From: an uncultured Victivallales bacterium
GTDB taxonomy: Bacteria > Verrucomicrobiota > Kiritimatiellia > UBA8416 > CAYRKB01
Assembly (NCBI GenBank): GCA_964424705.1
Contig: CAYRKB010000003.1
Coordinates: 1,956-65,955, forward strand
DNA length: 64,000 nucleotides
Direction of reading: 5' to 3'
Part shown: positions 25,263 through 53,964 of the stretch, one piece after another
How positions within the stretch are numbered: position 1 is the stretch's first letter
Layout: each line of letters starts with the position of its first letter
Position numbers and translations under genes: made by a program
Notes under the pieces: generated by a model
Databases searched by the model: none
Seen by the model: only the letters and a program-made list of their open reading frames with translations
What the model was told of the DNA's origin: nothing

Positions 25263-26105
25263 CCCGCGCCCGCCGCTTCACGGCTTGGACGCAGTGCGTG
25301 CTTGATTGGCCGGGAACTCTGCATTCTCGCTCCAGTAGCGGCCCAGTTCCTTCATACCGGGCATGTTGCGAATCCATGAGGACAATGTCAGGCCGGTTGG
25401 TGCGCGTGCGCGTGTTCTCAGTGCCTTTTCAGGGACTTGAGCAGCTCCTCGCCATTGGGTCCACGCTTCCCTTTATGATGGCCGGTTCGTTGGCCGGTGT
25501 CAACGCGAAGAAGACCGACCGGCGGAAATGCCTCAGTGACGCAGGGGGGCTTCGGTAGGGACGCCTCTCCGAGGCCACCGCGGACGGTCCGGAGGTCCGT
25601 CCCTACCTCTGAGCGCCACCCGGTGACTGAGACGATACCCGGCGCGCCGGTCGTAAAAGAAGTGGGCCGCCGCGTCAGCGCGACGGCCCCGGCACCGAAC
25701 ACCCTGCAGAGCGCCCTACCAATCTCCTTTGTGCCCTTACGTAAGCACCACTACTTGCTTGCTGACTGAGGCCGCTCATCAGGGCCATCATTACAGAAAT
25801 CCTAACCCCACCTTTCACCCTCCTTTCGCTAAGAGAGTTTACCGACACCCGTCATGTAGCATAGCGGATGCCAAGATCGATCAGCTGCAGCGACAACTGT
25901 AAGTTGCTGTAGGACAGTATGGTACATTCAGACACCGATCGCCTATCGGACTGCCATGTCTCGCGAAGGTGTCAGGCGAATGTGTCGGTCGTGTCTCGCG
26001 GTGGCACCGGCTCTTCGGCGGCAATCGGCGTGACCCGGCGCAGTCTTTGACAAACCCGTGTTGGACTGATAAGTAGAGGCGCGGATTACCGAGCAAGGAG
26101 ACAAC

Positions 26106-33593: not shown

Positions 33594-36371
33594 ATGTCCG
33601 CCGAAGACGTCCTGAAATCCTTCCATTCAGACCCTGTCTCTTTGGAAAACATTCTCGCGACGGGCGACGCCGGGTACATGGGACGGGCCGCCGCCTTCAT
33701 CCAGGTTCTCAACCGGCACGGCATCGCTCGCAGCCACATCGATGTGGAAGACTTCGCTGTCTTCCGGCACGAAGGCCTCGCGGGCGCGATCGAGCAGTTC
33801 CTGCGCGACAGCCCGCTCGACGCGCTCCCCCTGGAGCGCATCACGGTAAACCAGTATGTCGCGCCGGACACCTGCCGGGATGACCTGGCGCTGATCCGCC
33901 GGCAGCTGGGCGGGCATCAGGCGCGCATGGCGCATTACGCCACGCGCTTCAACATCGACATCCACGTGCGCCTTTTCGTCCGGGGGCTTGATGCGGAGCA
34001 GGCCGCCGCCATCGCGGGCTTCGCGGGCACCGGGGCGGTCGATTCGATCGGCTTCTTTCTCGACTTCGCCCGGTGCGAGCCGGGCTCCGCGCCCGCGCTG
34101 AGGGCCGCCCTCCGGGAGCTGTGCGCCCACGCTGCCGTCCGCAACCCCAAGGTAAGCTTTGGCAATTTCCCCTTCTGCTTCCTGCCGGCGGAGCATTTCA
34201 AGTGCCTGTACCGCGATGCGCTGGGCGCGCTGAAAGGGCAGATCGGCGCGCAGCGCAGCCTGCTTCGCGAGCTGCGGGCGCGGGAGCAGGCCTGCCACGC
34301 CCCATGCCGGGAATGCCGCTGCCGCACGCCCTGCTACGCCTACACGCAAATGGGAGAGTTTCCGGAATGGGCCCCGCAGGCGGTTCCGCGCCGGGAGCGG
34401 ACGCTGGCCTTTGCGGGCGGGAGCCTGGCGCCAGCGGAGCGTCCGGCCGGCGGCGATATCGTCTGGGCCGCTCCGGCGGCGCAGGGCGACCTGCTGGCTG
34501 CGGTGCTTGAGGGATTTGAAAACCTGCTGATCATCGACGGCTATTTCTATTCAAGATTCCCTTGCACGACGTTCGAGGTGATGCTGGCCCTGGAGGAAGG
34601 CGTCAACGTTTTCGGCGCGGCCAGCATCGGCGCGCTCAGGGCGGCCGAGCTGGACCGCTACGGCATGGTGGGCGTCGGCTACGTGTACGAATACCTCGGG
34701 CAGCGGGCCGTCAAGCCGTACCATGTCGTCGCCCAAACCTACGAAGAAGCGGATCGCCCGCTGACCTTGCCCCTGATCCAGGTTATCTACCTGCTGGAGT
34801 GCGCGCGGCGGGAAGGCGTTGTGGACGAGGCCGCGCAGGAGGCGCTGGGCGCGCTGGCGGAAGAGATTCACTTTACGGTTCTTTCCTTCGAGCACTTCTT
34901 CCGGCGGGCCGGGGCGGAGCCGCGCCTGGTGTCGGCGGCGCAGCGGCTGGAGGCCTACTATCGGGACAGGGGCCGTGCGTATTTCGACATCAAGCGCCGC
35001 GACGCGCTGCTGCTGCTGGACCGCTATCAGGCCATCCTGGCAGGGCGTCCGGGCAACTTCGTCCTGCAGGCGATGGACAAGGCGCGCATCGGATACCTGG
35101 GCGCCATAGGCGCCCGGTATCCCGCGGGACGCGACCTCGCGCTGCCGAAGCAATGGATGGCGCCGGCCGCCGGGCGCGGCCCGCTGCCGCCGATCGCGCG
35201 CGACAGCCGGGATGTGCCGGCGGAGCGGACGTGCGACCGGGCTCTGCGGTTCTTTCATGGCCTCGATGTTGTGGTCGCCGATACCACGCGCTACGACCCG
35301 GGCGGCAGCTACATTCTCAGCACCTTCTTTCTGCCTTTCTACTTTCTCGATTACTACCCGTCGTCCGCCACCGGCAACGGGAGTGCGCTTCCGGAGGCTC
35401 TGGCGTCGGCTTACATGGAGCTTGTTGAACGCCTATCGGCCTGCGCGGTGCACGTCGAGGGGCAGAAGGAAGGCGCGCGCGATGCGCCGCAGTTCCCGCT
35501 TGAGCTGATCCCGCAACTGTACAACTGGGGCGCGGATGCGGCGGAGAAGCAGCAGGCGGTGGAAACCTATGGCCGCGTCCTCGTCACGGACATCAGCGCC
35601 GGGCGGGACGTGCGCATACCTGCGCTGGCCATCCCTTTCAGGTATTCCGGCACGGACGGCTACGCGGCCGGCAATTCCCTGCCGGAAGCCATCCTGTATG
35701 GCGTGTATGAGGTCATCGAGCGGGATACGTGCCAGATTCACCACCTCGACCCCGTATGCCGCAAGGCGCTGCCGCAGTTCCAGGTCGACAAGGCTCGCAT
35801 CACGGACCCGCGCTGCCGCGCTCTGATGGCGCAGGCGGAGGAGAAGGGGTGCGACCTCGCGCTGTTCAGCCTTCCCAATCTCAGCGGGCTGCCCTGCGTG
35901 ATGTGCCACGTCTACGATCGCAATCGCCGCATCCAATGCCACGGCGGCATCGCCGTGCGTGCGGATTTCAACGCCGCGCTCCACGCCGCGCTGCACGAGG
36001 CGTACATGCAGTACATCACGTATTTTGTCGGCACGCGGGACGACTACACCTCCCATGCCCCGACGAAGCGCGCGCGCGTTGCGTATGAGAACGCGCAGCA
36101 GCTGTTTCTGGACGGGCCTGCTGCCTGCCCGGCGCTGCCGGCGCCGGTGCGGTTTGAGTCAGTTGGCGCGGAGCTCGCGCATGTTCTGGCGAAGGTGAAG
36201 GGCTCCGGGGCAGAGCACGTTCTGGTCGCCAACCTGAGTCCGCGCGATGAATACGAAGTCAAGTGCGTCAAGGTCATCATTCCCACCTGCGAGTTGTGGT
36301 TCTGTCCGCAGTACAGGCCCTCGTCCTTTCTCCCGGAGCGCGCGCGAAGAACGCGGGCTGCATTCCAGTAG
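33594..36371 (+). CDS. Tripartite fusion protein: unknown N-terminal domain (~290 aa) + TfuA-like domain + YcaO (cyclodehydratase/thioamidation) domain
   Basis: TfuA signature LLIIDGYFYSRFPCTTFEVMLALEEGVNVFGAASIGALRAAELDRYGMVGVGYVYEY. YcaO signatures SSATGNGSALPEALASAYMELVERLSA and SGTDGYAAGNSLPEAILYGVYEVIERD. Confidence 0.75.
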   Translation: MSAEDVLKSFHSDPVSLENILATGDAGYMGRAAAFIQVLNRHGIARSHIDVEDFAVFRHEGLAGAIEQFLRDSPLDALPLERITVNQYVAPDTCRDDLALIRRQLGGHQARMAHYATRFNIDIHVRLFVRGLDAEQAAAIAGFAGTGAVDSIGFFLDFARCEPGSAPALRAALRELCAHAAVRNPKVSFGNFPFCFLPAEHFKCLYRDALGALKGQIGAQRSLLRELRAREQACHAPCRECRCRTPCYAYTQMGEFPEWAPQAVPRRERTLAFAGGSLAPAERPAGGDIVWAAPAAQGDLLAAVLEGFENLLIIDGYFYSRFPCTTFEVMLALEEGVNVFGAASIGALRAAELDRYGMVGVGYVYEYLGQRAVKPYHVVAQTYEEADRPLTLPLIQVIYLLECARREGVVDEAAQEALGALAEEIHFTVLSFEHFFRRAGAEPRLVSAAQRLEAYYRDRGRAYFDIKRRDALLLLDRYQAILAGRPGNFVLQAMDKARIGYLGAIGARYPAGRDLALPKQWMAPAAGRGPLPPIARDSRDVPAERTCDRALRFFHGLDVVVADTTRYDPGGSYILSTFFLPFYFLDYYPSSATGNGSALPEALASAYMELVERLSACAVHVEGQKEGARDAPQFPLELIPQLYNWGADAAEKQQAVETYGRVLVTDISAGRDVRIPALAIPFRYSGTDGYAAGNSLPEAILYGVYEVIERDTCQIHHLDPVCRKALPQFQVDKARITDPRCRALMAQAEEKGCDLALFSLPNLSGLPCVMCHVYDRNRRIQCHGGIAVRADFNAALHAALHEAYMQYITYFVGTRDDYTSHAPTKRARVAYENAQQLFLDGPAACPALPAPVRFESVGAELAHVLAKVKGSGAEHVLVANLSPRDEYEVKCVKVIIPTCELWFCPQYRPSSFLPERARRTRAAFQ

Positions 36372-36819
36372 TACATTGCAGGCGGCGTCAAGCGACCACT
36401 GCCAGAATCAGGACTGAGACCACAATCCGTATGCCCCATGGTTTCGTTGTGGGCGACCCGCTTCCGTTCGCTTCTTCCTCCAGTTGCAGAGTGCGTCAAT
36501 TGCGCATGCCACGAGGACTCGGATTCCAGCTGCTCCGCCTTGTCGTGCCTCAAGGGGAAGAGGTGGTAGACCTCAAGCTTGAGGCGGTATCGGTCGCAGA
36601 GCAGCGCCCCGTCCATACTTCTCCCGAATCGCGGGGCGCTGTGCCGCCTCCGCGATGCGCTTTTGCCGTTTTCGTTAAGGTCTGGTCGCCGACAAGGTTC
36701 GGCGCCGGTCGCCGCATTCTCCGGGCGCCCTTACTCCGCTCCGTTTTGCAGCTGAACGAAAGAGGAAGACACAAACGACCGCAGACGAACAAGGACGCGG
36801 AGGATGTGGTGGCGTTAGG

Positions 36820-37011
36820 GCGCATGTGAGTTCCGGGGATCGCCGCCCGGGGGAGATGCGGCGAAGCTCGGAGAGAACGCGGCGGGGTCGCCGCATCTCC
36901 AGTCGGAGTTGCCCGTTGTCGCTCCCGGCTTGCTTCTGGAGTCGCGACGCCCTCGTCGCGGAGATAAAGAAACGCGCCTGAACGGAGAACTCCCCGGAAC
37001 TCACACGCGCC
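36820..37011 (-). mobile_element. MITE-like element copy 3
   Basis: Same TIRs. Flanked by a perfect 9-bp direct duplication gtggcgtta. Lies immediately upstream of aroD. Confidence 0.85.
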
Positions 37012-37087
37012 CGTGGCGTTATAGGTGGTCGTTTCTTTGTTGCCTGCCGTCCCGATCTGCCGTTACATATCCCGATTCGGGAGAAAT

Positions 37088-39765: not shown

Positions 39766-40242
39766 ATGAACGCAGCCCGCCCGATTGCTGTCCTGGCATT
39801 TCTCACGGTTTTGTTCCCGGCCCTGGCGGCGGACAACATGAAGGCGTTCCCGCCCGCCGACGCCGGCATGGTGCGCCATGTCCTGCTGCTTCCGCAGCAG
39901 AACGACGAAGCGGCCTTCAAGGTGGAGCTGATTGTCGGCAAGACGGTGGAGTTGGACGAGGGGAACAGGTATTTCTTTGCCGGCAAGATCGAGGAGGAGA
40001 CGATTGAGGGCTGGGGGTTTCCGCGCTACATGGTGAAGAAGCTGGGGCCGATGGCGGGCACGCTGATGGCGGTCGATCCGGACGCGCCCAAAGTGAGCCG
40101 TTTCATCACGCTGGGCGGCGAGCCGTATCTTATCCGGTACAACAGCCGCCTGCAGATCGTGGTGTATGCGCCCGAGGGCGTTGAAGTGCGTTACAGAGTG
40201 TGGAGCGCCGGGCCGGAAGCGAAGGCCATCGAGAAGGGCTGA
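39766..40242 (+). CDS. eco: Ecotin (periplasmic serine-protease inhibitor)
   Basis: Signal peptide, then AFPPADAGMVRHVLLLPQQNDEAAFKVELIVGKTVELD...EGWGFPRYMV...LIRYNSRLQIVVYAPEGVEVRYRVW, which aligns closely with E. coli ecotin. Confidence 0.85.
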   Translation: MNAARPIAVLAFLTVLFPALAADNMKAFPPADAGMVRHVLLLPQQNDEAAFKVELIVGKTVELDEGNRYFFAGKIEEETIEGWGFPRYMVKKLGPMAGTLMAVDPDAPKVSRFITLGGEPYLIRYNSRLQIVVYAPEGVEVRYRVWSAGPEAKAIEKG

Positions 40243-40269: not shown

Positions 40270-41397
40270 ATGTCACACGACCAGGCAAGCGAAGACGCGA
40301 CGCCCGACGGCCCGTCCCCGCTGGATATTCTGGCCCTGACCTGTGCCCAGGTTGCCGCGGAAATGGAGCGGCGCTATGGCCGGGGGCTGCACCACGCGGC
40401 GGGTCTCTGCCGCGAGGTGTTCAAGCGCGGGCAGACCACGATCGGCGCGGCGCCCGAATTTGGAGGCCCCGCGGAGTGGGCCGAACGGCTCCGTAGCGAT
40501 CTGTGGTTCCCTCCCTGTCGCATTGCCGGGCAGCTGGAGGATGGCGGCGTGGTGAAGTTTGTGACAAGCCTGGCCGACCGCAGGACCATCGAGTCGGTCG
40601 TCATTCCATCCAACGGCCGCAGCACGCTGTGCGTTTCGTCGCAAGTGGGTTGCGCGATGGGCTGCACGTTTTGCGTGACTGGCGCGATGGGATTCATCCG
40701 GCAGCTGGAAGTCCATGAGATCGTCTGGCAGGTGTGGGCCGCACGCTTCCTCCTGGGCTGCGCCGTCGACAATGTGGTCTTCATGGGCATGGGTGAGCCC
40801 CTGGACAACTTCGACAACGTGGTTCAGGCAATTCGCGTTCTGAGCGATCCGCGTGGGCTCGATATCGTCTGCCGCCATATCACGCTCTCCACCGCCGGGC
40901 ATGCGGACGGAATCCGCGGGCTGGCCGGGCTGGGGCTCCCGCACCTGCGCCTGGCGGTATCGATCAACTCGGCGAACGATGCCCGGCGCAGCGAAATCAT
41001 GCCGATCAACAAGATCTATCCTCTGGCCCGGGTTCTGGAGGAACTGCGGGCCTTCCCTCTCGGAAAGAAGGGGGTTGTCTTTGTCGAGTACGTCCTGCTG
41101 GCCGGCGTGAACGACTCGCGCGCTGACGCGCAGGCGCTGGCGAGCTGCCTCCGGGGAATTCCCGTCCGCGTAAACGTCATTCCACTGAACTGCGGAGATT
41201 CCGCCTCTGCGCATGAGAGCCCGGGCCCGGGCCGCGTGGAAGATTTCAAGCGCTGGCTGGTCGACGAGCATCTGTTCGTGCGCTTGCGCCGGCCAAGGGG
41301 CGCTGGCGCCATGGCCGCCTGCGGGCAGCTGGGCGCGGCGGGCGGCCAGATCGCCAGGGATCACGAAGGGAAAACAACAACCGCGAATGAGCGCTAA
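40270..41397 (+). CDS. rlmN: Radical SAM 23S rRNA/tRNA adenine C2-methyltransferase
   Basis: CVSSQVGCAMGCTFCVTG (CxxxCxxC), FMGMGEPLDN and a C-terminal Cys. The architecture is typical of RlmN/Cfr. Confidence 0.85.
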   Translation: MSHDQASEDATPDGPSPLDILALTCAQVAAEMERRYGRGLHHAAGLCREVFKRGQTTIGAAPEFGGPAEWAERLRSDLWFPPCRIAGQLEDGGVVKFVTSLADRRTIESVVIPSNGRSTLCVSSQVGCAMGCTFCVTGAMGFIRQLEVHEIVWQVWAARFLLGCAVDNVVFMGMGEPLDNFDNVVQAIRVLSDPRGLDIVCRHITLSTAGHADGIRGLAGLGLPHLRLAVSINSANDARRSEIMPINKIYPLARVLEELRAFPLGKKGVVFVEYVLLAGVNDSRADAQALASCLRGIPVRVNVIPLNCGDSASAHESPGPGRVEDFKRWLVDEHLFVRLRRPRGAGAMAACGQLGAAGGQIARDHEGKTTTANER

Positions 41398-41670
41398 GGG
41401 ACGCGAAGCCTCTCCCCGCTTGCTCTTTACGTCATCTACGATGCTAGAAGACCGAGAGCCGTTTCGCTTTCCCCTCGCGTGCAGGCTGAGCCGCTTCTTC
41501 CTTTTCACGTCCCTTCGGTGCGCCAGTTACGCGCCTTCCGTCACCATCCAAATAAATCGTCCGCCTTAGTCATAAAGCGGGGAAGCCACACGAGCCTTTC
41601 CAAATCCGTCCGCTCCTGCTACACAGGAGTGAAGCAACATGGGCGTAAGCGGCGCGCAGGGGGCGAGGCA

Positions 41671-43125
41671 ATGAAAGACAAAGCAGATGTGGGGCTGATC
41701 GGCCTGGCCGTGATGGGCGAGAACCTGGTGCTGAACATGGCGGGCAAGGGCTTCACCGTGGCGGCGTACAACCGGACGACGGAGAAGGTGGACGCCTTCG
41801 TGGCCGGGCGGGCGAAGGGGATGAACGTCATCGGCTGCCACAGCGTCCGCGAGCTCTGCGCGAGGCTGGAGCGGCCGCGCAAGATCATGATGCTCGTCAA
41901 GGCCGGCAAGGCCGTGGACGAGCTGGTCGATCAGCTGCTGCCGTGTCTCGAGCCCGGCGACATTCTCATCGACGGCGGCAACAGCCATTTTCGGGATACG
42001 ATCCGCCGCGCGCAGTATGTTGAGAGCAAGGGCCTGCTGTATGTCGGCGCTGGCGTTTCGGGCGGCGAAGAAGGCGCGCTGAAGGGGCCGTCCCTGATGC
42101 CGGGCGGCAGCCCGGCGGCCTGGCCGTACGTGAAGAATATCTTCCAGTCCATTTGCGCCAGGGCGCCGGAGGGCGAGCCGTGCTGCGAGTGGATCGGCGA
42201 GAACGGCGCGGGTCACTTCGTGAAGATGGTTCACAACGGCATCGAGTATGGCGACATGCAGCTCATCTGCGAAACGTATGACCTGCTCAAGCGTGGCCTC
42301 GGGCTATCGAACCGGGAGATGCACGACGTGTTCGCCGTGTGGAACCAAGGCGAGCTCGACAGCTATCTGATCGAGATCACCCGCGACATCCTGGGGTACA
42401 GGGACGAGGGCGGCCGGGAGGTCGTCGACCTGATTCTCGACGCCGCCGGCCAGAAGGGAACGGGCAAATGGGCCATCGACGCGGCGCTGGACGAAGGGCA
42501 GCCGCTGACTCTGATCGGCGAGGCCGTGTTTGCGCGCTGCCTGTCCGCGGCGAAGGGGGAGCGCGTCGCGGCGGCGCAGCAGCTCAAGCCCAAGGCCCGC
42601 GTGTTCAAGGGTGACCGGGCGAAATTCATCAACGACCTGCGCGCGGCGCTTTACGCGTCGAAGATTGTCAGTTACGCGCAGGGCTACCAGCTCATGCGCG
42701 GTGCGGCGGCGACGTACAAGTGGAATCTGAACTACGGCGGGATTGCGCTCGTCTGGCGCGGCGGGTGCATCATCCGTTCCGTCTTTCTTGGCGACATCAA
42801 GAAGGCCTTCGCGCGCGAGCCCGCCCTGGTGAACCTGCTGCTCGACAAATTCTTCAAGAAAGCCGTCGCCAGCCGGCAGGTCGCGTGGCGGCGCGTGATC
42901 GTGGCCGCCACGAAGCTGGGCATCCCCGTGCCGTGTCTCGGCAGCGCGCTGACCTACTTCGACGCCTACAGCAGCGCGCGGCTGCCGGCCAACCTGCTCC
43001 AGGCGCAGCGCGACTACTTTGGCGCCCACACCTATGAGCGTGTGGACAAGCCGCGCGGGGAATTCTTCCATACCAACTGGACCGGCCGCGGCGGCACCAC
43101 CACGGCCAACACTTATGCCGTGTAA
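41671..43125 (+). CDS. gnd: 6-phosphogluconate dehydrogenase, decarboxylating
   Basis: GLIGLAVMGENLVLN NADP-binding fold, then GAGHFVKMVHNGIEYGDMQLI, then WRGGCIIRS. Start at MKDKADVG (41671). Confidence 0.9.
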   Translation: MKDKADVGLIGLAVMGENLVLNMAGKGFTVAAYNRTTEKVDAFVAGRAKGMNVIGCHSVRELCARLERPRKIMMLVKAGKAVDELVDQLLPCLEPGDILIDGGNSHFRDTIRRAQYVESKGLLYVGAGVSGGEEGALKGPSLMPGGSPAAWPYVKNIFQSICARAPEGEPCCEWIGENGAGHFVKMVHNGIEYGDMQLICETYDLLKRGLGLSNREMHDVFAVWNQGELDSYLIEITRDILGYRDEGGREVVDLILDAAGQKGTGKWAIDAALDEGQPLTLIGEAVFARCLSAAKGERVAAAQQLKPKARVFKGDRAKFINDLRAALYASKIVSYAQGYQLMRGAAATYKWNLNYGGIALVWRGGCIIRSVFLGDIKKAFAREPALVNLLLDKFFKKAVASRQVAWRRVIVAATKLGIPVPCLGSALTYFDAYSSARLPANLLQAQRDYFGAHTYERVDKPRGEFFHTNWTGRGGTTTANTYAV

Positions 43126-43196
43126 GGCATTTCCGGCTTGTTTCCGCCCCAAACACCATGTAGTGTCCGCCTTGCTTTTTCTGGAACGCCGCCGTT

Positions 43197-43270
43197 TGCC
43201 GGATAGTGTAATGGTAGCACAACAGACTCTGAATCTGTTTGTCTAGGTTCAAATCCTAGTCCGGCAACCA
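43197..43270 (+). tRNA. tRNA-Gln (anticodon CUG)
   Basis: Cloverleaf resolved by hand. Acceptor stem tgccgga/tccggca, D-arm gtgt..gcac, anticodon stem acaga/tctgt with loop ctCTGaa, T-arm ctagg-ttcaaat-cctag, and a 3' CCA. Confidence 0.8.
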
Positions 43271-44104
43271 TCCTTAACCCCGTGAAATCACTGGAAATCC
43301 CCACATAATTGCCATATCTACGGCCTATTCGTTGTCGCCACGTGTCGGCTCTTGTTCGTTCGTATTCCATCCCAGGTTGGCCTAGTTAAGCCGTGTTAAG
43401 CCGTGCGAGGTCCCTCTCTGCACGCTTCTTGGCCTGCATCCGTCTCAAATCGCCACCACCGCGTACCGGTTGCCCCCTGGCGGCTTGTGGGCGGGTGGCG
43501 CGTGTGTTCGTGCGTCTGGCCTGGTCGGGGCGTTGTGGGGCGTTCTGGCGGCTGCGATGTACGTGATGCCGGGGGTGGTTCGACGGCCTTGGCCTTGCGC
43601 GCCGAGACGTTGGTCAGGTTCTTCTTTGCCGACCGCCGCTCTGTTTCGCGGACGCCCTTGGCGACCGTGATCTTGCCGCTGCGGACGTCCTCGTACAGGT
43701 CGGGCGCCTCGCGCTTGACCATGGCCGCGTCCTGGACCGTCCGGCCCTTCGCGTTTGCGGCCTTGGCGGCCTGGTCGCGGGATGTGGCTGGTTCAACCTC
43801 TGGCAATAAAGAATCCGCCGCCCTTCGCCGGCAGACTTATCAGCGGCGGGAGCGTCGGAAGGTTGGGGCGTTTGGCGTCTAGCGTGGAACAGACCCCCAG
43901 CATCGGGACAATGACAGGCTGCTCGCCCTTGATAGACACTGGCACGAACCACTCAATTAGGGAGGTGGCGGATGACATTCGTGCATAGAGAATATAGTCG
44001 CCCAGTTTCTAAGTCTCTACTGCCTATCACGGATGTGCGCCTGAACACCTCGGAATCGTCTGTTGAGCTGAGAGCAACCGACTACACCTTGCCGGACGTT
44101 CTCG

Positions 44105-44767
44105 CTAAGGACAGATGCCATTCCGCCGCAGTGCTTCCTCGGCTCGCCGCAGCTTATCTGCATCGAGCTGCCGATAAAGCTCCTCTGTGGGGTCTGGTTT
44201 CGCACGCTTTTCCAGAGCGGCATCTGCATCACGCTGTGCTTGGGCTGCAGCTCTCTGCGCATCCTCAGCTCTTCCCTGTGCAATTAATGATTCATCCTCG
44301 GCGTTCTTGGCAGCTGCTTCTGCTTTCTTTGTTCGTTGCTCCAGTTCAACAATCTTGGCAGCTCCCGGATTGGCTTTCGCCCACTCCTCGAACTCCGCCT
44401 TCTTAATGAGAGCCAGTTTCTGCTCTGCGACAGCGACCTGAGTTCTTGCGGTCCTCAGGTAATGCTCCAGCGATGCTCTTGCCGCTTCTCTGGTCTTTGT
44501 CGTTCGCGAAGTCAGGCTGCGCCATGCGTCACGTTGTTGCATCATGGCGTCCAACGTCTTACGAGCAGCGGCGATATCCGGGGAGGCGAGGCCATAAGCT
44601 GTAAGTGACGCATCCAGTTCGTCAGCGCATTGAAGCGCCTTTTCGCGCTGGCTCTTGAGTTCTGCCTGAGTTCTAGCAGCTCTTTCCAACTGTGAATCTG
44701 CGCCAACGGCCAGCGATGTGCCAATCACGAGGACTGCCAAGTAGGAACTAATTCTCATCAACCGCAT
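44105..44767 (-). CDS. Secreted coiled-coil protein, hypothetical
   Basis: Signal peptide, then extended Ala/Glu/Lys/Arg-rich heptad-like sequence. Confidence 0.45.
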   Translation of the reverse strand: MRLMRISSYLAVLVIGTSLAVGADSQLERAARTQAELKSQREKALQCADELDASLTAYGLASPDIAAARKTLDAMMQQRDAWRSLTSRTTKTREAARASLEHYLRTARTQVAVAEQKLALIKKAEFEEWAKANPGAAKIVELEQRTKKAEAAAKNAEDESLIAQGRAEDAQRAAAQAQRDADAALEKRAKPDPTEELYRQLDADKLRRAEEALRRNGICP

Positions 44768-44882
44768 CGCGTTCTCCCTTCACCGTACGAGCTGTGTACA
44801 TCCCCGGCTGCAGTTGGCGGCCGGCATCGCTTGAACATCGGCTGGTTCACTGTTGGCAAACTACCCACAAGGCGCGGGGGAG

Positions 44883-45263
44883 TCAACGGATATGAACCCG
44901 CGATGTGGCCGATCTTCCCGTTAACCAACGGGCGAGCTCGCCCTCCGTGATCTTGGGGTGGGCTCCGGCGTACGGGTGGAAGGCTTGCAGCGAACCAGCG
45001 GCAAGCGTCCTATACAGGGACGGGCGCGACAGACCTGCCCGCTTCGCCGCCGTTGTGATATTCAGTTCGCGCCCTTCAGTGACTGCGTCGTTCCTCGCGT
45101 CACGCCGGAGCCTGTCCACCGCTTCAAGACGCGGATCGTCTTCTGGCAGTGTCGCAATCCGAGTTATGAGTTCCAGCTTGTTCATGTCCATCGAACAGCG
45201 TGATGCCATGAGGTGACGGTCGGCCTGGTCACTGTTGGGAACGTAAGCCCCAGGCGGCGTCAT
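44883..45263 (-). CDS. Small helix-turn-helix DNA-binding protein (Fis/resolvase-type HTH at the centre)
   Basis: ITTAAKRAGLSRPSLYRTL resembles Hin/Fis-type HTH motifs. Start uncertain among several in-frame Met codons. The gene ends 50 bp from island repeat copy A. Confidence 0.5.
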   Translation of the reverse strand: MTPPGAYVPNSDQADRHLMASRCSMDMNKLELITRIATLPEDDPRLEAVDRLRRDARNDAVTEGRELNITTAAKRAGLSRPSLYRTLAAGSLQAFHPYAGAHPKITEGELARWLTGRSATSRVHIR

Positions 45264-45311
45264 GTCAACGCCTGCGCGTCACGCGTTCGGGTGGGCTTCA
45301 ATGTGCGCGGT

Positions 45312-45449
45312 CAGAGGCGTTTGGGAGGCTCAAAGGTATACAGTAAGGTATACAATTTTAGCGCGATGTCTGGAGCCTGTCGGACGCAAAGCACCTCCTT
45401 GCAAGTTCAACGCTACGGGAAATGACGCGGACTTTGCATCCGCTGTAGC
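45312..45449 (+). repeat. 138-bp direct repeat, copy A (left border of accessory island)
   Basis: About 95% identical to 49996-50133. Contains two GTATAC palindromes spaced 6 bp apart (aaaggtatacagtaaggtatacaat). Confidence 0.8.
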
Positions 45450-45562
45450 CCTTTCGCCATCCCGTAGACTGCCGCCGAATCTGACCCGGCAATTGGTGTC
45501 ATCTTCCGCCCTGAATCGGCCTTCCTCTGGTCATCGGCAGGGCATCGTGGTAGCCTCTCCCA

Positions 45563-46744
45563 ATGAGAACCCCGCTCGTTCTTTCCCTCGTCATGGTAGG
45601 TAGCATTCTGGTAGGCACCGTCCATACATCATCAGCGGCGGGAGAGGCTCTGGTTGGCGGCTACTCGAATGCACCGGTCACGAACATGGCGGCGGAGATG
45701 GTCAAGAGCCCCGTGATTCTCAAAGGACTCTTCCGCAACCCCCGCTCGCCAACCAACGGCCTCTCGTCCGCCATGTTGCCTGAGAGAGCCGTCATGCTAA
45801 GCCTCAGATGGCTCCGGGAGATGCAGAATGCCGATGGGTCTTGGAGCACCGACCAAGACCCGAAAGCTGTCGGAACCGCCCTCTCCGTCCTGACACTTCT
45901 CAGCCACGGAGAAACCCCAGCCTCGACAGGATTCGGCGATTCGGTGCGGAAGGGTCTGGAGTTTCTTGTTTCCGCCCAGCAAGAGAATGGCACCTTTGAG
46001 GAAGCAGGTACGCATCCGGCCATCGCCCACGGCATCGTCACTTTGGCCCTCTGTGAAGCCTATGGGATGACAAGGGTCCCAAGGCTGCGTGATGCTGCGG
46101 AGAAGGCATTGGAGGTCATTCTCTCAACCCAGAGAGGAACGGGGCTGTGGGATGCTCAGTATCGGCCCGCTAACGGCGGCGATGACAACCTTGAGGCGTC
46201 TGCGTGGCAAGTCCGAGCGGTGTTCGCAGGCCGCTTGGTGGGGTCGCAAATGAACGGGCTGGCTGAAGCACTGAAGGCCGCCGCCGATGGTTTCGCCGTT
46301 GCCGCTGGAACTCCAGATGCATCGACTGCACCCTTTGCCATTCAGCCGCTCTTGATGCTTCATCGCAACAGGGATGCCGCCTACATTACCGCCCTCGATG
46401 CAATGAAGGGGATGCAGATTGATTGGGCAGAGCCGCAGTGCGACGACCCGATTGTGCATTGGTACTTCACTGGACAGGCTCTCTTCCGGCATGGTGGGGA
46501 GGCGTGTTTTGCGTGGAATCGGTCATCGGTGCCAAACCTCGTTAGCAACCAGACGGTGTCGCAGCGTGAGAAGGGCGGCGGGGTCGGATACTGGGACTCT
46601 CCGGGCAAGGCCGAGAAGTACGGGCGGGTTTACACGACGGCCCTTTGTTCCCTCATGCTTCAGGTCTACAGTATGAGGGCTTACGTGCCTGAGCAGCCCA
46701 AGCAGGATGCAAAGGATGAAGACATCAGAGTTGAAATTAGGTAG
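45563..46744 (+). CDS. Secreted protein: cystatin-like N-terminal module followed by prenyltransferase/squalene-oxidase (QW-type) repeats
   Basis: Signal peptide. The N-terminus ALVGGYSNAPVTN...MLPERAVMLSL parallels the downstream cystatin. Repeats QNADGSWS, QQENGTFEE and TQRGTGLWD are alpha-alpha toroid QW motifs. Confidence 0.6.
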   Translation: MRTPLVLSLVMVGSILVGTVHTSSAAGEALVGGYSNAPVTNMAAEMVKSPVILKGLFRNPRSPTNGLSSAMLPERAVMLSLRWLREMQNADGSWSTDQDPKAVGTALSVLTLLSHGETPASTGFGDSVRKGLEFLVSAQQENGTFEEAGTHPAIAHGIVTLALCEAYGMTRVPRLRDAAEKALEVILSTQRGTGLWDAQYRPANGGDDNLEASAWQVRAVFAGRLVGSQMNGLAEALKAAADGFAVAAGTPDASTAPFAIQPLLMLHRNRDAAYITALDAMKGMQIDWAEPQCDDPIVHWYFTGQALFRHGGEACFAWNRSSVPNLVSNQTVSQREKGGGVGYWDSPGKAEKYGRVYTTALCSLMLQVYSMRAYVPEQPKQDAKDEDIRVEIR

Positions 46745-46771
46745 TCGGTGTTCCGGGGGGTGTCCTTGAGC

Positions 46772-47407
46772 ATGAAACAGAACGTCGCCTCCGTCCTCGT
46801 GCTGACCCTCATCGCCCTGATTGTTGGCACCGCTCAGCCATCACCAGCGGCAGAGACTCTGGTTGGCGGCTACTCCAAGGTATCTGTCACGAACGAACAG
46901 GTCATCGCCGCAGCCCAGTTCGCCGTCAAGACCTTGGCAGCCATGCCGGAGAGGGCGGTTGTTGTCTCCCTTGTCGAGATTAAGGAAGCCGAGCAGCAGG
47001 TCGTGGCGGGAATGAACTACCGGCTGCGGCTCAGGGTGCTGGGGGATGACTTGGTCAGGCAAATGATTGTGGTGGTCTGGTGGCAGGCGTGGAGAAAGCC
47101 AGACCCTTATCGGCTGACATCGTGGGCGTGGAAGCAGGGCGTGCAAATGACGGTGCGCCCAGTCCGGTTCGACCCCAAGGGAGAGCCTCGCAAGGTGTTT
47201 ATTGGCGAGAACACGAACGCCATCAGCACGGTTGAGGAACTGCAAGCACGCATCACGGCTCTGCCAGCGGGAACCGAGCTGTCTTGGAACAGCGGTTGTT
47301 ACCTCTACGAGTTCGTTCCGGTGGGCACGAACCGCATTCCGATGAAGGACTTCGTGAACATGTGCGAGAAGGCTGGGGTGACATTCTCGTATTCCTGCGG
47401 GTTCTGA
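46772..47407 (+). CDS. Cystatin-family cysteine-protease inhibitor-like secreted protein with C-terminal extension
   Basis: After the signal peptide: LVGGYSKVSVTNEQVIAAAQFAVKTL...EQQVVAGMNYRLRLRV. This gives the canonical cystatin G, FAV and QxVxG motifs. A Trp-rich segment follows, then a ~110-aa C-terminal domain. Confidence 0.7.
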   Translation: MKQNVASVLVLTLIALIVGTAQPSPAAETLVGGYSKVSVTNEQVIAAAQFAVKTLAAMPERAVVVSLVEIKEAEQQVVAGMNYRLRLRVLGDDLVRQMIVVVWWQAWRKPDPYRLTSWAWKQGVQMTVRPVRFDPKGEPRKVFIGENTNAISTVEELQARITALPAGTELSWNSGCYLYEFVPVGTNRIPMKDFVNMCEKAGVTFSYSCGF

Positions 47408-47623
47408 GCCGGATGTCTGTTGTGCGCACGGGAGAGGCGGTCTGGCGGCCACTATCTCTTCCACACGCCGGGAACAGATCTCATGGACGTCAGGATGTCA
47501 GTCGCCGATAACTGTAGTAATATATTTATCATAAGATAGTTGCGCACTATATAACATTATCTTGCACTATAACGAGGCAAGTGTTATCGTGCGCTACGAA
47601 GTTGTGATTCGGGAGCTTCTCGT

Positions 47624-48628
47624 ATGAGAGAAATCGTCCAGTCTCTAGCCCGGCATATTGAGGCGGTGGCCGGCCGCGTGCCCAAACTGCAGCCGGTGCC
47701 TGAGGCAATTCATAAACTGCCGGCCTATTTCGGCGGCCTGTATGAGGCGTGGCAAGCCGACTTGTTTGAGCATCGATACCTGTTCCTTGTCAGCAAGGGA
47801 AAGGAGCACTCTACTCCCGCCGAGGTATCGGGGCACTATCGTGTGGCGATGCGGGAAATCCATGACCGGGTAGCTTTTGTCTTCCTGAATCTTGAGGCTT
47901 TCGCACGCCAGCGCCTTGTTCAATACCGCGTGCCGTTCGTCGTTCCGGGCCGGCAAGTGTATCTGCCACAGACCTTGATCGATCTGCGGGAAGGCGCCTC
48001 GGCGCGAACTGGGCAAAGCTCGGAGGAAATCACTTACCTATCGGGCGCGGCCCAGGCCATCCTCCTTTGTTTACTCCAGAAACCGAAGGCGCCTGAATTG
48101 CTCTCACTTCGAGAGTGGTCAGCAGTGCTCGGCTACTCAGCCATGACTGCCACGCGCGCCGCGAGTGAACTAGCCGCGACTCAACTTTGCAGAATCGAAC
48201 CAAGAGGCAGGAAGACGCTCCTGAATTTCGACGACAAGCGTCGTGAGCTGTGGGAGAAGGCCCTGCCTTTTCTTCGCACTCCGGTGCGGGGTCGGTCGTA
48301 TGTGCGGCTGAAGACAAAGGGAGAGTTGCCGTGGTTGCAGGCGGGTCTTCCTGCATTGTCTCGCCATACCATGCTCGCGGACGACGGGCGCCCCGTCTTC
48401 GCCATAGGCACATCGGAATACACCAAGCTTGTGACCGAAAGGCGGGTTCAGGCAATTCCCTTCTGGGAGGAGGATGCTGTGTCGGTTGAGCGGTGGCGAT
48501 ATCGTCCGGGCGTTCTGTCCGGCGGACCAACCGTTGATCGCCTTTCCCTGTATTTGTCCCTATATACCGAACGAGACGAACGGGTGCAGGCAGCACTCAA
48601 AGAGCTGGTGGAGGGTATTCCATGGTGA
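47624..48628 (+). CDS. abiEi: AbiEi-like type IV toxin-antitoxin antitoxin (HTH transcriptional regulator)
   Basis: About 334 aa. It immediately precedes, and overlaps by 7 nt, a nucleotidyltransferase-toxin gene. Size and organisation are typical of AbiEi. Confidence 0.6.
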   Translation: MREIVQSLARHIEAVAGRVPKLQPVPEAIHKLPAYFGGLYEAWQADLFEHRYLFLVSKGKEHSTPAEVSGHYRVAMREIHDRVAFVFLNLEAFARQRLVQYRVPFVVPGRQVYLPQTLIDLREGASARTGQSSEEITYLSGAAQAILLCLLQKPKAPELLSLREWSAVLGYSAMTATRAASELAATQLCRIEPRGRKTLLNFDDKRRELWEKALPFLRTPVRGRSYVRLKTKGELPWLQAGLPALSRHTMLADDGRPVFAIGTSEYTKLVTERRVQAIPFWEEDAVSVERWRYRPGVLSGGPTVDRLSLYLSLYTERDERVQAALKELVEGIPW

Positions 48629-49401
48629 AAGGGTTACAGCGGTTTGTTGACCATTTCAAAGGGTTCGCGGACTCATATGTCCTTATCGGCGGGGCGGCCT
48701 GCGACATCTGGCTGACCGACCGTGGGCTTACATTCCGTGCCACCAAGGACATTGATCTTGTTCTTGTCGTAGAAGCGTTGCGGCCCGCTTTCTTCACATG
48801 CTTCTGGGAATTCATCAGGGGCGGCCGGTACAAGAGTCACCAACAAAGCGCCGTCCGTCCCGTCTTCTACCGTTTCCAGGATCCGATGACGGCCGAGTAT
48901 CCCTACATGATTGAACTCCTGTCCAGAACGGGGCTGGAGTTGCCTGCGGATGCGCGCATCACACCGATTCCCGCCGGCGATGACATTTCCAGTCTCTCGG
49001 CCATCCTGCTGGATGACACCTACTATCGGTTCGTCGTTCAGAGCCGAACGATGGTGAACGGCGTTCCCATTCTCCCGGCCCAATGCCTCATCCCGCTCAA
49101 GGCGCGTGCATGGCTCGACCTTACCGTGCGCAAGGAGCGCGGTGACGTGACTATCAAGAGCGACGACATAAAGAAGCACCGCTACGACGTGTTTCGGCTC
49201 TACCTTTCGATTGCACCGGCCGACCGGTTTGAGCTGCCTCCAAGCATCCTGGCTGATCTTGGCAGCTTCCTCGACAGGCTCCCCCGTGATTCTGCGGACT
49301 GGTCCTCAATACGGGAGGCCGTCGGTAGGTCGGCCCTGCCCGAAACGGCAACAGTTCTTACCCAGATCCGCGCGATCTTCGGACTTCCTGGGAAGGGGTA
49401 A
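48622..49401 (+). CDS. abiEii: AbiEii/AbiGii-family nucleotidyltransferase toxin
   Basis: N-terminal minimal NTase motif YVLIGGAACDIW...RATKDIDLVLVV (hG[GS]...DhD), with a C-terminal helical domain. 259 aa. Confidence 0.7.
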   Translation: MVKGLQRFVDHFKGFADSYVLIGGAACDIWLTDRGLTFRATKDIDLVLVVEALRPAFFTCFWEFIRGGRYKSHQQSAVRPVFYRFQDPMTAEYPYMIELLSRTGLELPADARITPIPAGDDISSLSAILLDDTYYRFVVQSRTMVNGVPILPAQCLIPLKARAWLDLTVRKERGDVTIKSDDIKKHRYDVFRLYLSIAPADRFELPPSILADLGSFLDRLPRDSADWSSIREAVGRSALPETATVLTQIRAIFGLPGKG

Positions 49402-49995
49402 TGCGCGCCGTAAAGTCGGCCCATCGAGCAAAAGATCAATTTCGGGAGGGTGTCGCTTCCAGGACGATCTGCCGGAACCGTATAAGAATGTCGGAGTGCT
49501 TCTCTTGGAGGTATTCCTCAAACAAGGCCCTCAATGGCAGCGGCCTGTTCTGCAGGCGGATTCCTTGCCGATCGAGCAGGTGTATCAGGCTCCAGTTGAG
49601 GGCATGCTGACCGGGTTCGGGATGACGGACCCCTGGGCTTGGCACGCGCGGTGACAGGGCGTTGCCGGAGGCTCTCCCAAAACCCAAAAGTATACAATTC
49701 TGTCCTGGAAGAGTATACAATGACATAATTCCTTAGGAAAGACGCGCGCGCGACCGGCCATTGCAACAGTGGTGATGTAGAAAGGTCACGCGGCAAGCTA
49801 GACTCTTCGGTTGCAACACACGAGGAGCGACATGGCTTTCAAGCGCGTGACCGAGGAAGAACGTAGACTGGTGTCCTATTGGCGTTCCAAGCCGTTCACC
49901 CCTAGCAGCCAACAGCTTACACAAGCGATTGAAGAGCCTGCGCCTGCTCGTTTGCACCCCGTTTGTCGCAACCTGACAATCGACTGCACCCCTGT

Positions 49996-50133
49996 CAGAG
50001 GCGTTTTGGAGGCTCAAAGGTATACGGTAAGGTACACAATGTTAGCGCGATGTCTGGAGCCTGTCGGACGCAAAGCACCTCCCTGCAAGTTCAACGCTAC
50101 GGGAAATGACGCGGACTTTGCATCCGCCGTAGT
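49996..50133 (+). repeat. 138-bp direct repeat, copy B (right border of accessory island)
   Basis: Matches 45312-45449 in the same orientation, including the GTATAC-containing segment. Confidence 0.8.
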
Positions 50134-50135
50134 CC

Positions 50136-50339
50136 TCACTGCCCTTTCTTCTGATCGCCAGCGGTAGTTTCCCTGTACATCAAAGGCCGCAGCAGAAAAG
50201 GCGCGACAACCATCAGCGCCACCGTGCACACCGCCCGCCCCGTGACTCCATTGCCCAGCCAAAGATATGTTCCTTCACATATCCCGTACACAATTACAGC
50301 CGACATCAAAAGCCAGAGAATCACTTTCACCGCACGCAT
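50136..50339 (-). CDS. Small two-TM membrane protein, hypothetical
   Basis: 67-aa ORF with two hydrophobic helices (VILWLLMSAVIVYGI; VCTVALMVVAPFLL). Abuts repeat copy B. Weak evidence. Confidence 0.25.
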   Translation of the reverse strand: MRAVKVILWLLMSAVIVYGICEGTYLWLGNGVTGRAVCTVALMVVAPFLLRPLMYRETTAGDQKKGQ

Positions 50340-50700
50340 AAAGCTCCCGCCTCCTCACCCATTTATGGGTTACCAGTTACATACTGAATAAGTTTCTTCC
50401 CGATATCAGTATTGTCCTTGAGCCCGCCCAGCTCTGCAGATCCAGGCCCGAACGCGAACAGAGGTTGCAGCGGTGTGTTGACCATTTCAAAGGGTTCGCG
50501 GACTCATATGTCCTTACCCGTGATCCCACGGTCAATGAATTCCTTGATGATCTCAATGCCATTGCCGCTGGCAAACGTGCGTACTTGGTCCTGCTGGATC
50601 TCAACGCTATTCTCCTGTCTGTCTTGTGCGTAATCCGTCACTGATACGTGCCGGACCAAAGGCGTTCCAGAAACACGGCCAGCCGCAGTGGGTGATCGAT

Positions 50701-52463: not shown

Positions 52464-52880
52464 TCAGACGCGCAGGAATGTCATCTGCAGAATATTTCTA
52501 TTGTTTTCCCGTCGATAGCTTACGCTGTCACACAAGGTGCGGATAAGATGAATTCCCAGTCCACCGACAGCACGATCCGTTGCATCCAGAGTTGTGTCAG
52601 GCTCAGGGAGTGATAGGACATTAAACGGACTTCCGCTGTCGGCGATTGCCAGCAAAAACGCATCGCCACTTGTCGTGCAGGAAATCTCAACGCTGCCCTT
52701 ACCACCAGTATAGGCGTAGTGGCAGATATTGACGAACGCTTCCTCAACTGCAACCAGCAGGCCCGATGTCCTCTTGGGTGCCAACCCACAGCGGCCGGCG
52801 CACTCCCCGACGAATGCGGTCAGTACGTTTAGATTTCCAAGGGTGGCCGCACAGGTCATTCTGTCCGGGCTGAGTTCCAT
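52464..52880 (-). CDS. Anti-sigma factor / serine-protein kinase of partner-switching module (RsbW/SpoIIAB-like GHKL ATPase)
   Basis: N-box EEAFVNICHYA, with DSGSPF and GGLGIHLIR G-boxes. About 139 aa. Start taken at MELSPDR, 2 nt downstream of the STAS gene stop. Confidence 0.7.
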   Translation of the reverse strand: MELSPDRMTCAATLGNLNVLTAFVGECAGRCGLAPKRTSGLLVAVEEAFVNICHYAYTGGKGSVEISCTTSGDAFLLAIADSGSPFNVLSLPEPDTTLDATDRAVGGLGIHLIRTLCDSVSYRRENNRNILQMTFLRV

Positions 52881-52881
52881 G

Positions 52882-53217
52882 TCAGACCAGCGTGGCCAGG
52901 GCCGCTGCCACAGAGTCATCCATCTTGAAGATCGAGCCGAACCCCGAGATGTCAAAAACCTCTTTGACCGTACCTTTGACATTGGCGCAACGTACCTGCC
53001 CGCCTTTCGCCTTGAGTTGCTTTGCGGTCATCAGCAGCACACGCAAACCTGCGCTGCTGATGTAATTCAGACCGTCAAAATCAAAGACTAGAGCGTTCGC
53101 GCCGCTGCTAATCAACTCGTTGAGCGCTTTCCCGCAGTCTGCCGCGGTTACAGCATCGAGTCTGCCAGTTACCGTGACAACGGTCGCGGCTGCTTCCTTC
53201 TCTGTCCGGATTTCCAT
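52882..53217 (-). CDS. STAS-domain anti-sigma-factor antagonist (RsbV/SpoIIAA-like)
   Basis: 111 aa. Contains DFDGLNYISSAGLRVLL with the conserved phosphorylatable Ser. Confidence 0.8.
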   Translation of the reverse strand: MEIRTEKEAAATVVTVTGRLDAVTAADCGKALNELISSGANALVFDFDGLNYISSAGLRVLLMTAKQLKAKGGQVRCANVKGTVKEVFDISGFGSIFKMDDSVAAALATLV

Positions 53218-53430
53218 GGTTAGCTCCCTTTTGCGATTCTTACTTCGTCGTGCTGTCGGTCTGTTTCAGCATTAGAGTCACCCCGTTATTGCCATTCACT
53301 CGCCGGAACTCCATACTTTCCGTCAGCTTCGGGATAGCGTTAAGTCCCAGCTGATCCGATGTTAGTAAGTGACTAATGCGCTTGACTATGCCAGACGCCA
53401 CGGAAGATGTCCAGATCACCATCACAACGG

Positions 53431-53622
53431 GCGCTTGTGAGTTCCGGGGAGTTGTCCGTTCAGGCGCGTTGTTGTACCTCCGCGACGAGGGCGTCGCGAC
53501 TCCAGAAGCAAGCCGGGAGCGACAACGGGCAACTCCGACTGGAGATGCGGCGACCCCGCCGCGTTCTCTCCGGGCTTCGCCGCATCTCCCCCGGGCGGCG
53601 ATCCCCGGAACTCACATGCGCC
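53431..53622 (+). mobile_element. MITE-like element copy 4
   Basis: Same TIRs (one mismatch, gcgcTtgtgag). Flanked by atcacaac/ctcacaac near-identical 8-bp duplications. Lies between the rsbV-like start and the SBP gene. Confidence 0.8.
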
Positions 53623-53964
53623 CCCCTCACAACCATCTGAACCGTGAGCTCCAATGGGGCGGAAGAGGGGATCCCGTTCCTGCCGCGAGCGGCTACTCCC
53701 GGCCGAAACGGCTTTGCCGCTTACGTAGGGACTAGTCTCCGCGCCTTCGTGTCCCGCGTTAGGTCCTCCAGGCGAGAGGTGCACTCCTTGTAACGGGGTA
53801 GATGCCGATCTGAGCGCCCGTGATGCATTGCTGAATGCGCTGCATACTTGCTATTGGAGCGGCAGCTGTGCTATTAGGCTCCAAACGGCACGCGCTAGCC
53901 ACATCCGTGTGCGACCATCATTAGCGGCTATGTGTTTGTGCCAACAAAAGAGGGGGTAGTTATT

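Follow-up and report, generated by a model that had tools for sequence, protein, structure and literature searches.

We analyzed a 64,000-nucleotide (nt) stretch of the genome of an uncultured Victivallales bacterium (positions 1,956 to 65,955 of contig CAYRKB010000003.1), hereafter called the window; positions are those of the window unless another contig is named. In it, a gene for tRNA-Gln(CUG) is followed by a series of accessory genes and by two sets of direct repeats. One set, R1 and R2 (together, R), was taken in an original prediction, made from the sequence alone, to be the borders of a mobile island. The other, E1 and E2 (together, E), consists of part of the 5' end of a gene for an AbiEii-like toxin and a second copy of that part. 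We consider it probable that the region is a decayed hot spot at the tRNA-Gln gene, that R and E are scars of duplication and not borders, and that the variable unit is the segment from 43271 to about 45526.

An accessory region begins at the last base of tRNA-Gln

The tRNA-Gln gene is where the original prediction had placed it, and it was found by both ARAGORN and Rfam (Table 1). Its 3' end is a real boundary, and the accessory region has its left edge at the last base, 43270. A contig assembled from sample SRR21524777 (L006) has a different right flank after the same tRNA: it is 100% identical to the window across 40827-43270 and unrelated to it from 43271 on. At the junction, the form present in the window (type A) continues from the tRNA with TCCTTAACC, and the other form (type B) continues with ATCATCTTTC. 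In L006 the tRNA is followed, at 2445-4473, by a gene for an 81-amino-acid (aa) HTH_31 protein and by three open reading frames (ORFs) without family matches; this stretch of L006 has no similarity to the window.

Base composition also changes at this point. The GC content at third codon positions (GC3) is 0.79-0.89 in eight genes left of the tRNA and 0.53-0.76 in every gene from 43.4 to 60.3 kb, and the drop falls exactly at the tRNA. In a comparison of codon usage, which had been proposed as a check, the genes at 43-50 kb were closer to the right-hand genes than to the core genes on the left. Both the GC profiles and GC3 stay low to at least 60.3 kb, with no recovery at 50.5 kb. Because the drop persists to at least 60 kb, the right border previously drawn at about 50.5 kb is not set by composition; that limit is arbitrary.

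These profiles would suit a larger and older island, of which the finding would be the left end only. Such an island would extend rightward from the tRNA as far as about 61-62 kb, taking in genes for a thiamine pyrophosphate (TPP) decarboxylase, for RsbW/RsbV/SpoIIE-type proteins, and for an ABC transporter. Its composition is low from 43.4 to at least 60.3 kb by both GC3 and GC, rising only past about 62 kb, and in codon usage the genes at 43-50 kb side with those on the right. However, nowhere in the window does the tRNA recur over 12 nt or more, which leaves no attL/attR pair derived from its 3' end; the genes checked at 50.7-64 kb, ordinary housekeeping and sensory genes, yielded no integrase; and the segments at 1-6 kb and 22-24 kb are also lower in GC, so composition alone is weak evidence. 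We regard the larger island as rather unlikely. The low-GC3 block to the right of the finding does hold a partner-switching set (52464-53217 and 58392-60335), consisting of an RsbW-like kinase (HATPase_c_2), a STAS-domain antagonist, and a Cache-HAMP-SpoIIE phosphatase, with ABC-transporter genes between them.

The region shares several properties with known tRNA-linked genomic islands. Accessory DNA begins where the tRNA ends, at its last base; the DNA there is atypical in composition and codon usage, strains appear to differ there, and defense and secreted-protein genes accompany remnants of recombination genes. It differs from them in having no tRNA-derived flanking repeats (no attR), no intact integrase or recombinase, and no clear right-hand end in composition, and its recombinase remnant is of the serine and not the tyrosine type. 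The 143-nt repeats are unrelated to the tRNA-Gln sequence. In a scan of 185,579 species, the closest match to gnd was 77% identical, and tRNA-Gln lay beside gnd in none of the 20 related loci checked.

Strains appear to differ next to the tRNA and not between the repeats

Logan contigs are assemblies made with k=31, and their ends fall exactly 30 nt into runs common to two loci. We drew our strain-level conclusions from such assembled contigs, several of them short and separate, rather than from reads. One end of contig L108 is at 43241, 30 nt inside the tRNA, which matches a k=31 branch at 43270/43271; L006, which carries other DNA after the tRNA, has no branch at the tRNA 3' end. In samples carrying type A, L108 and L110 end at 45387, within a 41-nt run common to R1 and R2. 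Similarly, the end of L105 at 48674 lies 30 nt inside the run common to E1 and E2. L095 and L096 (samples SRR21524777 and SRR21524760) break at E as well, but they span R2 without a k=31 break, and thus R seems to be single-copy in that strain. The abiEii gene and the gene-poor stretch that follows it (region c in Table 1) are still to the left of R2 there. The terminal overlap of L095 does not make it a circular molecule, as it is the k−1 overlap at the E repeat.

Three contigs carrying the toroid gene (described below), from three samples, all begin at 45527, which is about where DNA homology to a relative, L099, starts. From these we infer that the right end of the variable segment is at about 45526. 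The strain-variable unit therefore seems to be the segment from 43271 to about 45526, which includes R1, rather than the R1-R2 interval. It contains a 136-aa and a 61-aa ORF, the genes for a coiled-coil protein and a helix-turn-helix (HTH) protein, R1, and 74 nt past R1. The strains are otherwise nearly identical (∼99.9%). Across 1.4-2.2 kb of L108-L110, the sole difference is a 6-nt indel in the coiled-coil gene.

The 143-nt repeats

The direct repeats are real but longer than the 138 bp first given to them. In an ungapped comparison that included the flanks, R1 and R2 were 143 nt long with 7 mismatches (95.1% identity) and had abrupt edges on both sides. The same layout is found in independent metagenome contigs (L001, L005, L093, and L097) at about 99.9% identity or more. 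Because the repeats are identical across independent assemblies, they are no artifact of a single assembly. There are two copies in the window, and none was found beyond these in the window or in the collections searched. The core of R had no matches in the metagenome_contigs or viral_contigs collections, a weak negative, as the metagenome collection evidently lacks this organism, and 49402-50700, which contains R2, had no blastn matches in plasmids or phages.

Several identities for R were tried and rejected. Coding sequence was dismissed because a search of 1.84 billion representatives gave the 111-aa ORF that runs across R2 no genuine homolog; the two extra matches were repeat-protein artifacts. 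The empty searches of the collections spoke against dispersed-repeat, phage, and plasmid DNA. An integron attC site was discarded on the grounds that R has no hairpin-forming symmetry and that no integrase is present among the ORFs tested. The size of R and its intergenic position would suit a small structured RNA gene, an attC-like folded site, or a dispersed repeat resembling a miniature inverted-repeat transposable element (MITE), but we think it highly improbable that R is any of these. At E up to 1, Rfam found only the tRNA and nothing in R; folding z-scores were −0.6 to +0.1 on both strands, i.e., there was no fold signal; and the k=31 contigs that span R2 unbroken argue against further copies in that strain. 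Moreover, R has two copies in 64 kb versus four for a true MITE-like family in the window. That family, which is unrelated to R, is 197 nt long, occurs in both orientations at 94-97% identity, and has 22-nt terminal inverted repeats (GGGCGCATGTGAGTTCCGGGGA...).

The 5' half of R (45310-45381) is promoter-like and contains two GTATAC boxes. It aligns with the DNA upstream of the toroid ortholog in L099 with a score that was reached by 1 of 2,000 shuffles. The alignment consists of an identical GAGGCTCAAAGG, 16 nt, and then TACAAT in the window versus TGTAAT in L099, so that two conserved blocks are equally spaced in the two sequences. The window has about 145 extra nt between the promoter-like block and a 36-nt leader, which correspond to the 3' half of R plus 45453-45526. 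These features suggest that the 5' half of R is a toroid promoter with GAGGCTCAAAGG as a −35-like element, a 16-nt spacer, and TACAAT as a −10-like box. R1 also contains a minus-strand sigma-70-like site (45383-45355) that faces the HTH gene.

Could R have been kept as a regulatory module? It would be a promoter whose paired GTATAC operators place several transcription units under one regulator, for example the toxin's winged-helix partner or the HTH_17-like protein, and a degenerate stretch at 49666-49721 would count as its third copy. Boxes resembling GTATACAAT are enriched, with 11 in the window versus 2.3 expected. Six of them are in the island, paired and in one orientation, with pairs in R1, in R2, and at 49690-49721, and at all three places GGAGGCTC stands ahead of the boxes. 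The promoter-like sites in R1 point in both directions. Nonetheless, R2 faces no intact plus-strand gene but only an antisense 67-aa ORF and the stub at E2, the GTATAC palindromes are not kept in L099, the third copy is statistically weak, and this reading assigns no role to the 3' half of R. We consider such a module unlikely.

Even less can be said for R1 and R2 as the borders of a 4.7-kb cassette holding the toroid, cystatin, partner, and toxin genes, which would have moved by att-like recombination in trans or by homologous (Campbell-type) insertion and excision. The geometry is suitable, in that the repeats are direct, sharp-edged, and bracket whole genes, which is how they would look after a single crossover of a circular molecule with a resident copy, and the recombinase stub and the excisionase-like gene flank the R1-R2 interval. 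Two strain alleles that match the other repeat copy, 50026 G>A in R2 of L095 and L096 and 45399 T>C in L098, hint at recombination between R1 and R2. This sharing is compatible with gene conversion between R1 and R2 but is equally well explained by recent mutation; the allele in L098 could be a k-mer chimera produced by an assembly switch, but that in L095 and L096 cannot. No deletion, empty, or circle junction through R appeared in any contig that spans R1 or R2, which, being assembled contigs, are a weak test. In the strain in which R seems single-copy, the abiEii gene and region c nevertheless remain to the left of R2. The four genes of the interval make up two modules that occur separately elsewhere, the 5' half of R resembles native toroid promoter DNA, no intact recombinase is present, and 143 nt in common would be unusual for the sites of a serine recombinase. 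We thus judge a cassette quite improbable, and neither the repeats as island borders nor the interval between them as a movable unit withstood the analysis.

A related comparison is with cis-mobilizable elements (CIMEs) and the tandem accretion of integrative elements, as in the ICESt1-type elements of Streptococcus thermophilus. As in CIMEs, a gene set without a recombinase lies between direct repeats beside the stump of an element that carried one. Unlike CIMEs, the window has repeats that are unrelated to the tRNA target and that in part look like native promoter DNA, no excision product was seen in the contigs, and the strain-variable unit is another interval.

The E copies and a recombinase stub

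The recurrence of a 54-nt piece of the abiEii-like 5' end beyond R2 had been reported with 3 mismatches; it is real, but its source is 48632-48685 and the copies differ at 2 of 54 nt. With gaps, the similarity extends to 48627-48685 and 50456-50516. Among homologs, identity at third codon positions is no higher in this part than elsewhere in the gene, which eliminated a conserved cis site; with no extra conservation there, E2 is best taken as a recent local copy. The earlier view that the copy indicates a past rearrangement was upheld. In addition, 45440-45460 (the last 13 nt of R1 plus 8 nt) matches the reverse complement of 48622-48642 at 19 of 21 positions (blastn E, ∼0.045). Either the match is coincidental, or the start of the abiEii-like gene is represented here by a further, third fragment.

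E2 is fused at 50516/50517 to the 5' stub of a serine recombinase gene, whose frame enters E2 and stops. The stub matches the Pfam Resolvase N-terminal domain (E, 3.9e-4; profile positions 10-46 of 145; 21.0 bits versus a cutoff of 23.3) and the PHROG 95 integrase (E, 4.8e-4). A complete serine recombinase, with catalytic and DNA-binding domains, is absent. The statement that the island has no integrase therefore holds for an intact one, and none was found among the other ORFs tested, including the genes checked at 50.7-64 kb, but the stub had been overlooked.

A proposed history of the region

We propose that the 3' end of tRNA-Gln(CUG) would be a hot spot for integration and recombination in this uncultured bacterium of the Planctomycetes-Verrucomicrobia-Chlamydiae (PVC) superphylum. 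Downstream of the tRNA would lie the remains of at least one integrative element, namely, the excisionase-like HTH gene, the 47-codon recombinase stub, and orphan ORFs. Among these would be intact cargo of two independent kinds: the toroid-plus-cystatin pair and a DUF1814 nucleotidyltransferase with a noncanonical winged-helix partner. The 143-nt repeats would be two copies of a stretch of the upstream region of the toroid gene. Together, R and E would be the scars of one episode of local duplication or insertion, or of illegitimate recombination, followed by deletions, one of which may have fused E2 to codon 47 of the recombinase and truncated it. R and E have diverged to similar extents (4.9% and 3.7%) and are interleaved in the order R1-E1-R2-E2; because of these two features, one local episode of duplication or insertion is suggested. 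The original prediction had offered a decayed integrative element as one possibility, and this fits the gene content.

Some observations weigh against this history. The R1-E1-R2-E2 layout does not yield an order of rearrangements, and the 327 nt that separate R2 from E2 are without an equivalent in the first unit (R1 to E1). The promoter assignment leans on one diverged relative, L099; its −35-like box agrees with TTGACA at 3 of 6 positions and was missed by the promoter scan. The type B strain was pieced together from separate short contigs of one sample and is not one molecule. The end at 45526/45527 is set by contig ends, and L109 ends at 45550 where 45556 was expected. As the nearest genome has 77% identity in gnd, synteny was judged from short strain-level contigs only. 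Finally, the toxin's own match to Pfam AbiEii (E, 0.083) is below significance.

Table 1. Features in and around the tRNA-Gln region, and other repeats of the window
Feature	Position	Strand	Basis
tRNA-Gln(CUG), anticodon CTG, encoded CCA	43197-43270	+	ARAGORN; Rfam tRNA, 71.6 bits
Segment that appears to vary between near-identical strains (type A only)	43271-45526	.	Contig ends, L006
136-aa ORF, orphan	43396-43806	-	ORF list
220/222-aa protein, N-terminal signal-like segment, coiled-coil-like sequence	44105-44773	-	ORF; gene call on metagenome contigs
126-aa (or 102-aa) HTH protein, weakly excisionase/HTH_17-like	44883-45263	-	Subthreshold profile matches
R1, left copy of 143-nt direct repeat	45310-45452	+	Repeat finder, ungapped comparison
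393-aa secreted alpha/alpha-toroid, terpene cyclase/mutase-like family	45563-46744	+	Pfam, homologs
211-aa secreted cystatin-domain protein, extra C-terminal domain	46772-47407	+	Pfam
334-aa partner, central MarR/ArsR-type winged helix between two uncharacterized domains	47624-48628	+	
259-aa DUF1814 (AbiEii/MenT-like) nucleotidyltransferase	48622-49401	+	Homologs, fold
E1, duplicated part of abiEii-like 5' end	48632-48685	+	Repeat comparison
Region c, no credible gene; second pair of GTATACAAT boxes (49690-49721) after GGAGGCTC	49402-49993	.	Six-frame translation
R2, right copy of 143-nt direct repeat	49994-50136	+	Repeat finder, ungapped comparison
67-aa hydrophobic ORF abutting R2	50136-50339	-	ORF; gene call on metagenome contigs
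E2, 54-nt copy of abiEii-like 5' end, broken on both sides	50463-50516	+	Repeat comparison
Serine recombinase 5' stub, ∼47 codons	50517-50659	-	Pfam, PHROGs, reading frame
197-nt MITE-like family	14814-15014	+	Repeat search
197-nt MITE-like family	53428-53628	+	Repeat search
197-nt MITE-like family	25097-25263	-	Repeat search
197-nt MITE-like family	36818-37014	-	Repeat search

The DUF1814 toxin and its partner

All of the genes listed in the original prediction are present as ORFs where it placed them, but several of its names fail. Of the proposed abiEi/abiEii pair, the toxin held up as AbiEii/DUF1814 by family and fold, but the 334-aa partner matched no AbiEi model or structure. The toxin has 6,320 homologs at E up to 0.001, and PF08843 is matched by 23 of 44 aligned homologs (53-83% identity; best E, 3.6e-7). 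Its AlphaFold2 model has a mean predicted local distance difference test (pLDDT) score of 86.9, and its best fold match in the PDB is MenT1 of Mycobacterium tuberculosis (8an5_A; E, 5e-5). Residues G23 G24 ... D43 x D45 are invariant, which is a pol-beta-type GG...DxD pattern. The alignments and the predicted fold thus place the 259-aa protein in DUF1814 at the level of family and fold.

The partner gene comes first and overlaps the toxin gene by 7 nt (ATGGTGA). Its product has no match to the Pfam AbiEi families or to the solved AbiEi and MenA structures. AbiEi-type proteins (COG5340) carry their winged helix at the N terminus and an antitoxicity domain at the C terminus, an arrangement that the 334-aa protein does not have. 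PDB sequence searches with the toxin and the partner were uninformative except for the winged helix of the partner, and its N-terminal domain possibly has a XisH/restriction endonuclease-like fold.

Homologs of the pair have the same order and gene overlap in three other contigs (L088, L089, and L092). In L092 (629-5299) a type I restriction-modification operon contains them, between its hsdM and hsdS genes; in L089 (3415-8843) they adjoin an MmeI-type enzyme; and in L088 (2-6939) they adjoin SNIPE and a canonical DUF6088/AbiEii pair. All three are contexts of the defense-island kind, and the partner gene was upstream in 3 of 3 neighborhoods examined.

MenT1 to MenT4 and AbiEii are DUF1814 nucleotidyltransferases, tRNA acceptor ends are modified by MenT1 and MenT3, and DUF1814 toxins are paired with several kinds of antitoxin (PMC7450476, PMC10435456, PMC11375011). 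The pair in the window resembles AbiE of Streptococcus agalactiae and MenAT in that the downstream gene encodes a DUF1814-type nucleotidyltransferase whose predicted fold is closest to MenT1, the upstream gene encodes a DNA-binding winged-helix protein, and the two genes overlap, travel together, and are in defense contexts in relatives. It differs in that the partner is larger than the toxin (334 versus 259 aa), its winged helix is central, and it is unlike the Pfam AbiEi families and the solved AbiEi and MenA structures. We do not class the pair as a canonical AbiE system, although it would most likely work like one. By analogy with AbiE and MenAT, a toxin left unrestrained by its partner would modify the 3' ends of tRNAs and so block translation, and the system would provide either stability resembling plasmid addiction or abortive infection. 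We tentatively suggest, as a possibility that we hold with some reserve, that the 334-aa family, unless it corresponds to the COG4861-type partners known from the literature, is an undescribed class of DUF1814 partner (an antitoxin or regulator) that forms a distinct, widespread defense module with a toxin of about 260 aa.

The toroid and cystatin genes

Of the two proteins that had been described as cystatin modules, one is such a protein. The ORF from GTG 46748 encodes 219 aa, and the gene call gives 211 aa; the 219-aa ORF matches Pfam Cystatin (E, 2.4e-7; 31.3 bits versus a cutoff of 22.2), and its translation has the QVVAG motif. What the 211-aa protein has in common with the cystatin family (PF00031) is a Gly region at its N terminus, the QVVAG loop, and a score that exceeds the Pfam cutoff; it differs in being bacterial and secreted, in having an extra C-terminal domain of about 100 aa, and in being paired with a toroid. 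It is a putative inhibitor. The cystatin gene has another kind of secreted protease inhibitor encoded at a distance of about 7 kb or less, the serine-protease inhibitor ecotin; a gene for a 925-aa YcaO-TfuA fusion (33594-36371) and the ecotin gene (39766-40242) are in the high-GC3 core just left of the tRNA.

The other protein, of 393 aa, is a terpene-cyclase-like toroid. It has no Pfam cystatin match but matches SQHop_cyclase_C (E, 3e-6), and its 405 homologs are named in their sources as terpene cyclase/mutase or prenyltransferase repeat proteins. All that it has in common with the cystatin gene is a 56-nt leader, a direct repeat with one copy at the 5' end of each secreted-protein gene (45630-45685 and 46839-46894; 84% identity). 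Toroid orthologs in L099 and L100 are 68% identical to it, and the cystatin protein adjoining the toroid gene in L100 is 54% identical to the one in the window. This recurrence suggests that the toroid and cystatin form a functional pair, and the secreted toroid-plus-cystatin gene pair appears typical of this lineage. The toroid region of L099 is at 332-2027. In L100, which comes from a sample that also holds this organism, 2214-4668 encodes, in order, a DUF4838 protein, a cystatin protein (353 aa), a toroid (459 aa), and a 174-aa membrane protein.

Other genes of the region

The 136-aa ORF next to the tRNA has no match in Pfam, PADLOC, NCBIfam, or PHROGs and no tblastn match in plasmids or phages; a ParB-HTH fragment, which had been reported downstream of the tRNA, was unsupported in every search. 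The coiled-coil protein had only chance-level family matches (PADLOC and NCBIfam), and the 6-nt indel in its gene gives 220 instead of 222 aa in some strains. The protein previously named as a Fis/Hin-type HTH protein is instead weakly HTH_17- or excisionase-like: its matches are Pfam HTH_17 (E, 6e-4, below the cutoff), the TIGR01764 excisionase domain (E, 7e-4), the PHROG 66 excisionase/regulator (E, 8e-4), and PADLOC mad1 (E, 1e-4). The 96-aa and 111-aa ORFs of region c had no family matches in Pfam, PADLOC, or NCBIfam, nor did the 67-aa ORF in PADLOC or NCBIfam.

Implications

As a whole, the region is probably an ordinary decayed tRNA-linked islet with a DUF1814 module, in which the partner family may be new. 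It is a worked example of how conspicuous 143-nt repeats, taken at first for the borders of an element, can be rearrangement scars that include promoter DNA. It also illustrates that the ends of k=31 contigs are usable as evidence on repeat copy number and strain junctions. The conserved, uncharacterized partner family of DUF1814 toxins is a candidate for a role as antitoxin or in defense. A hint of a function related to protease inhibitors comes from the toroid-plus-cystatin pair, which recurs in genomes like those of Verrucomicrobiota, Lentisphaerota, and Kiritimatiellota.

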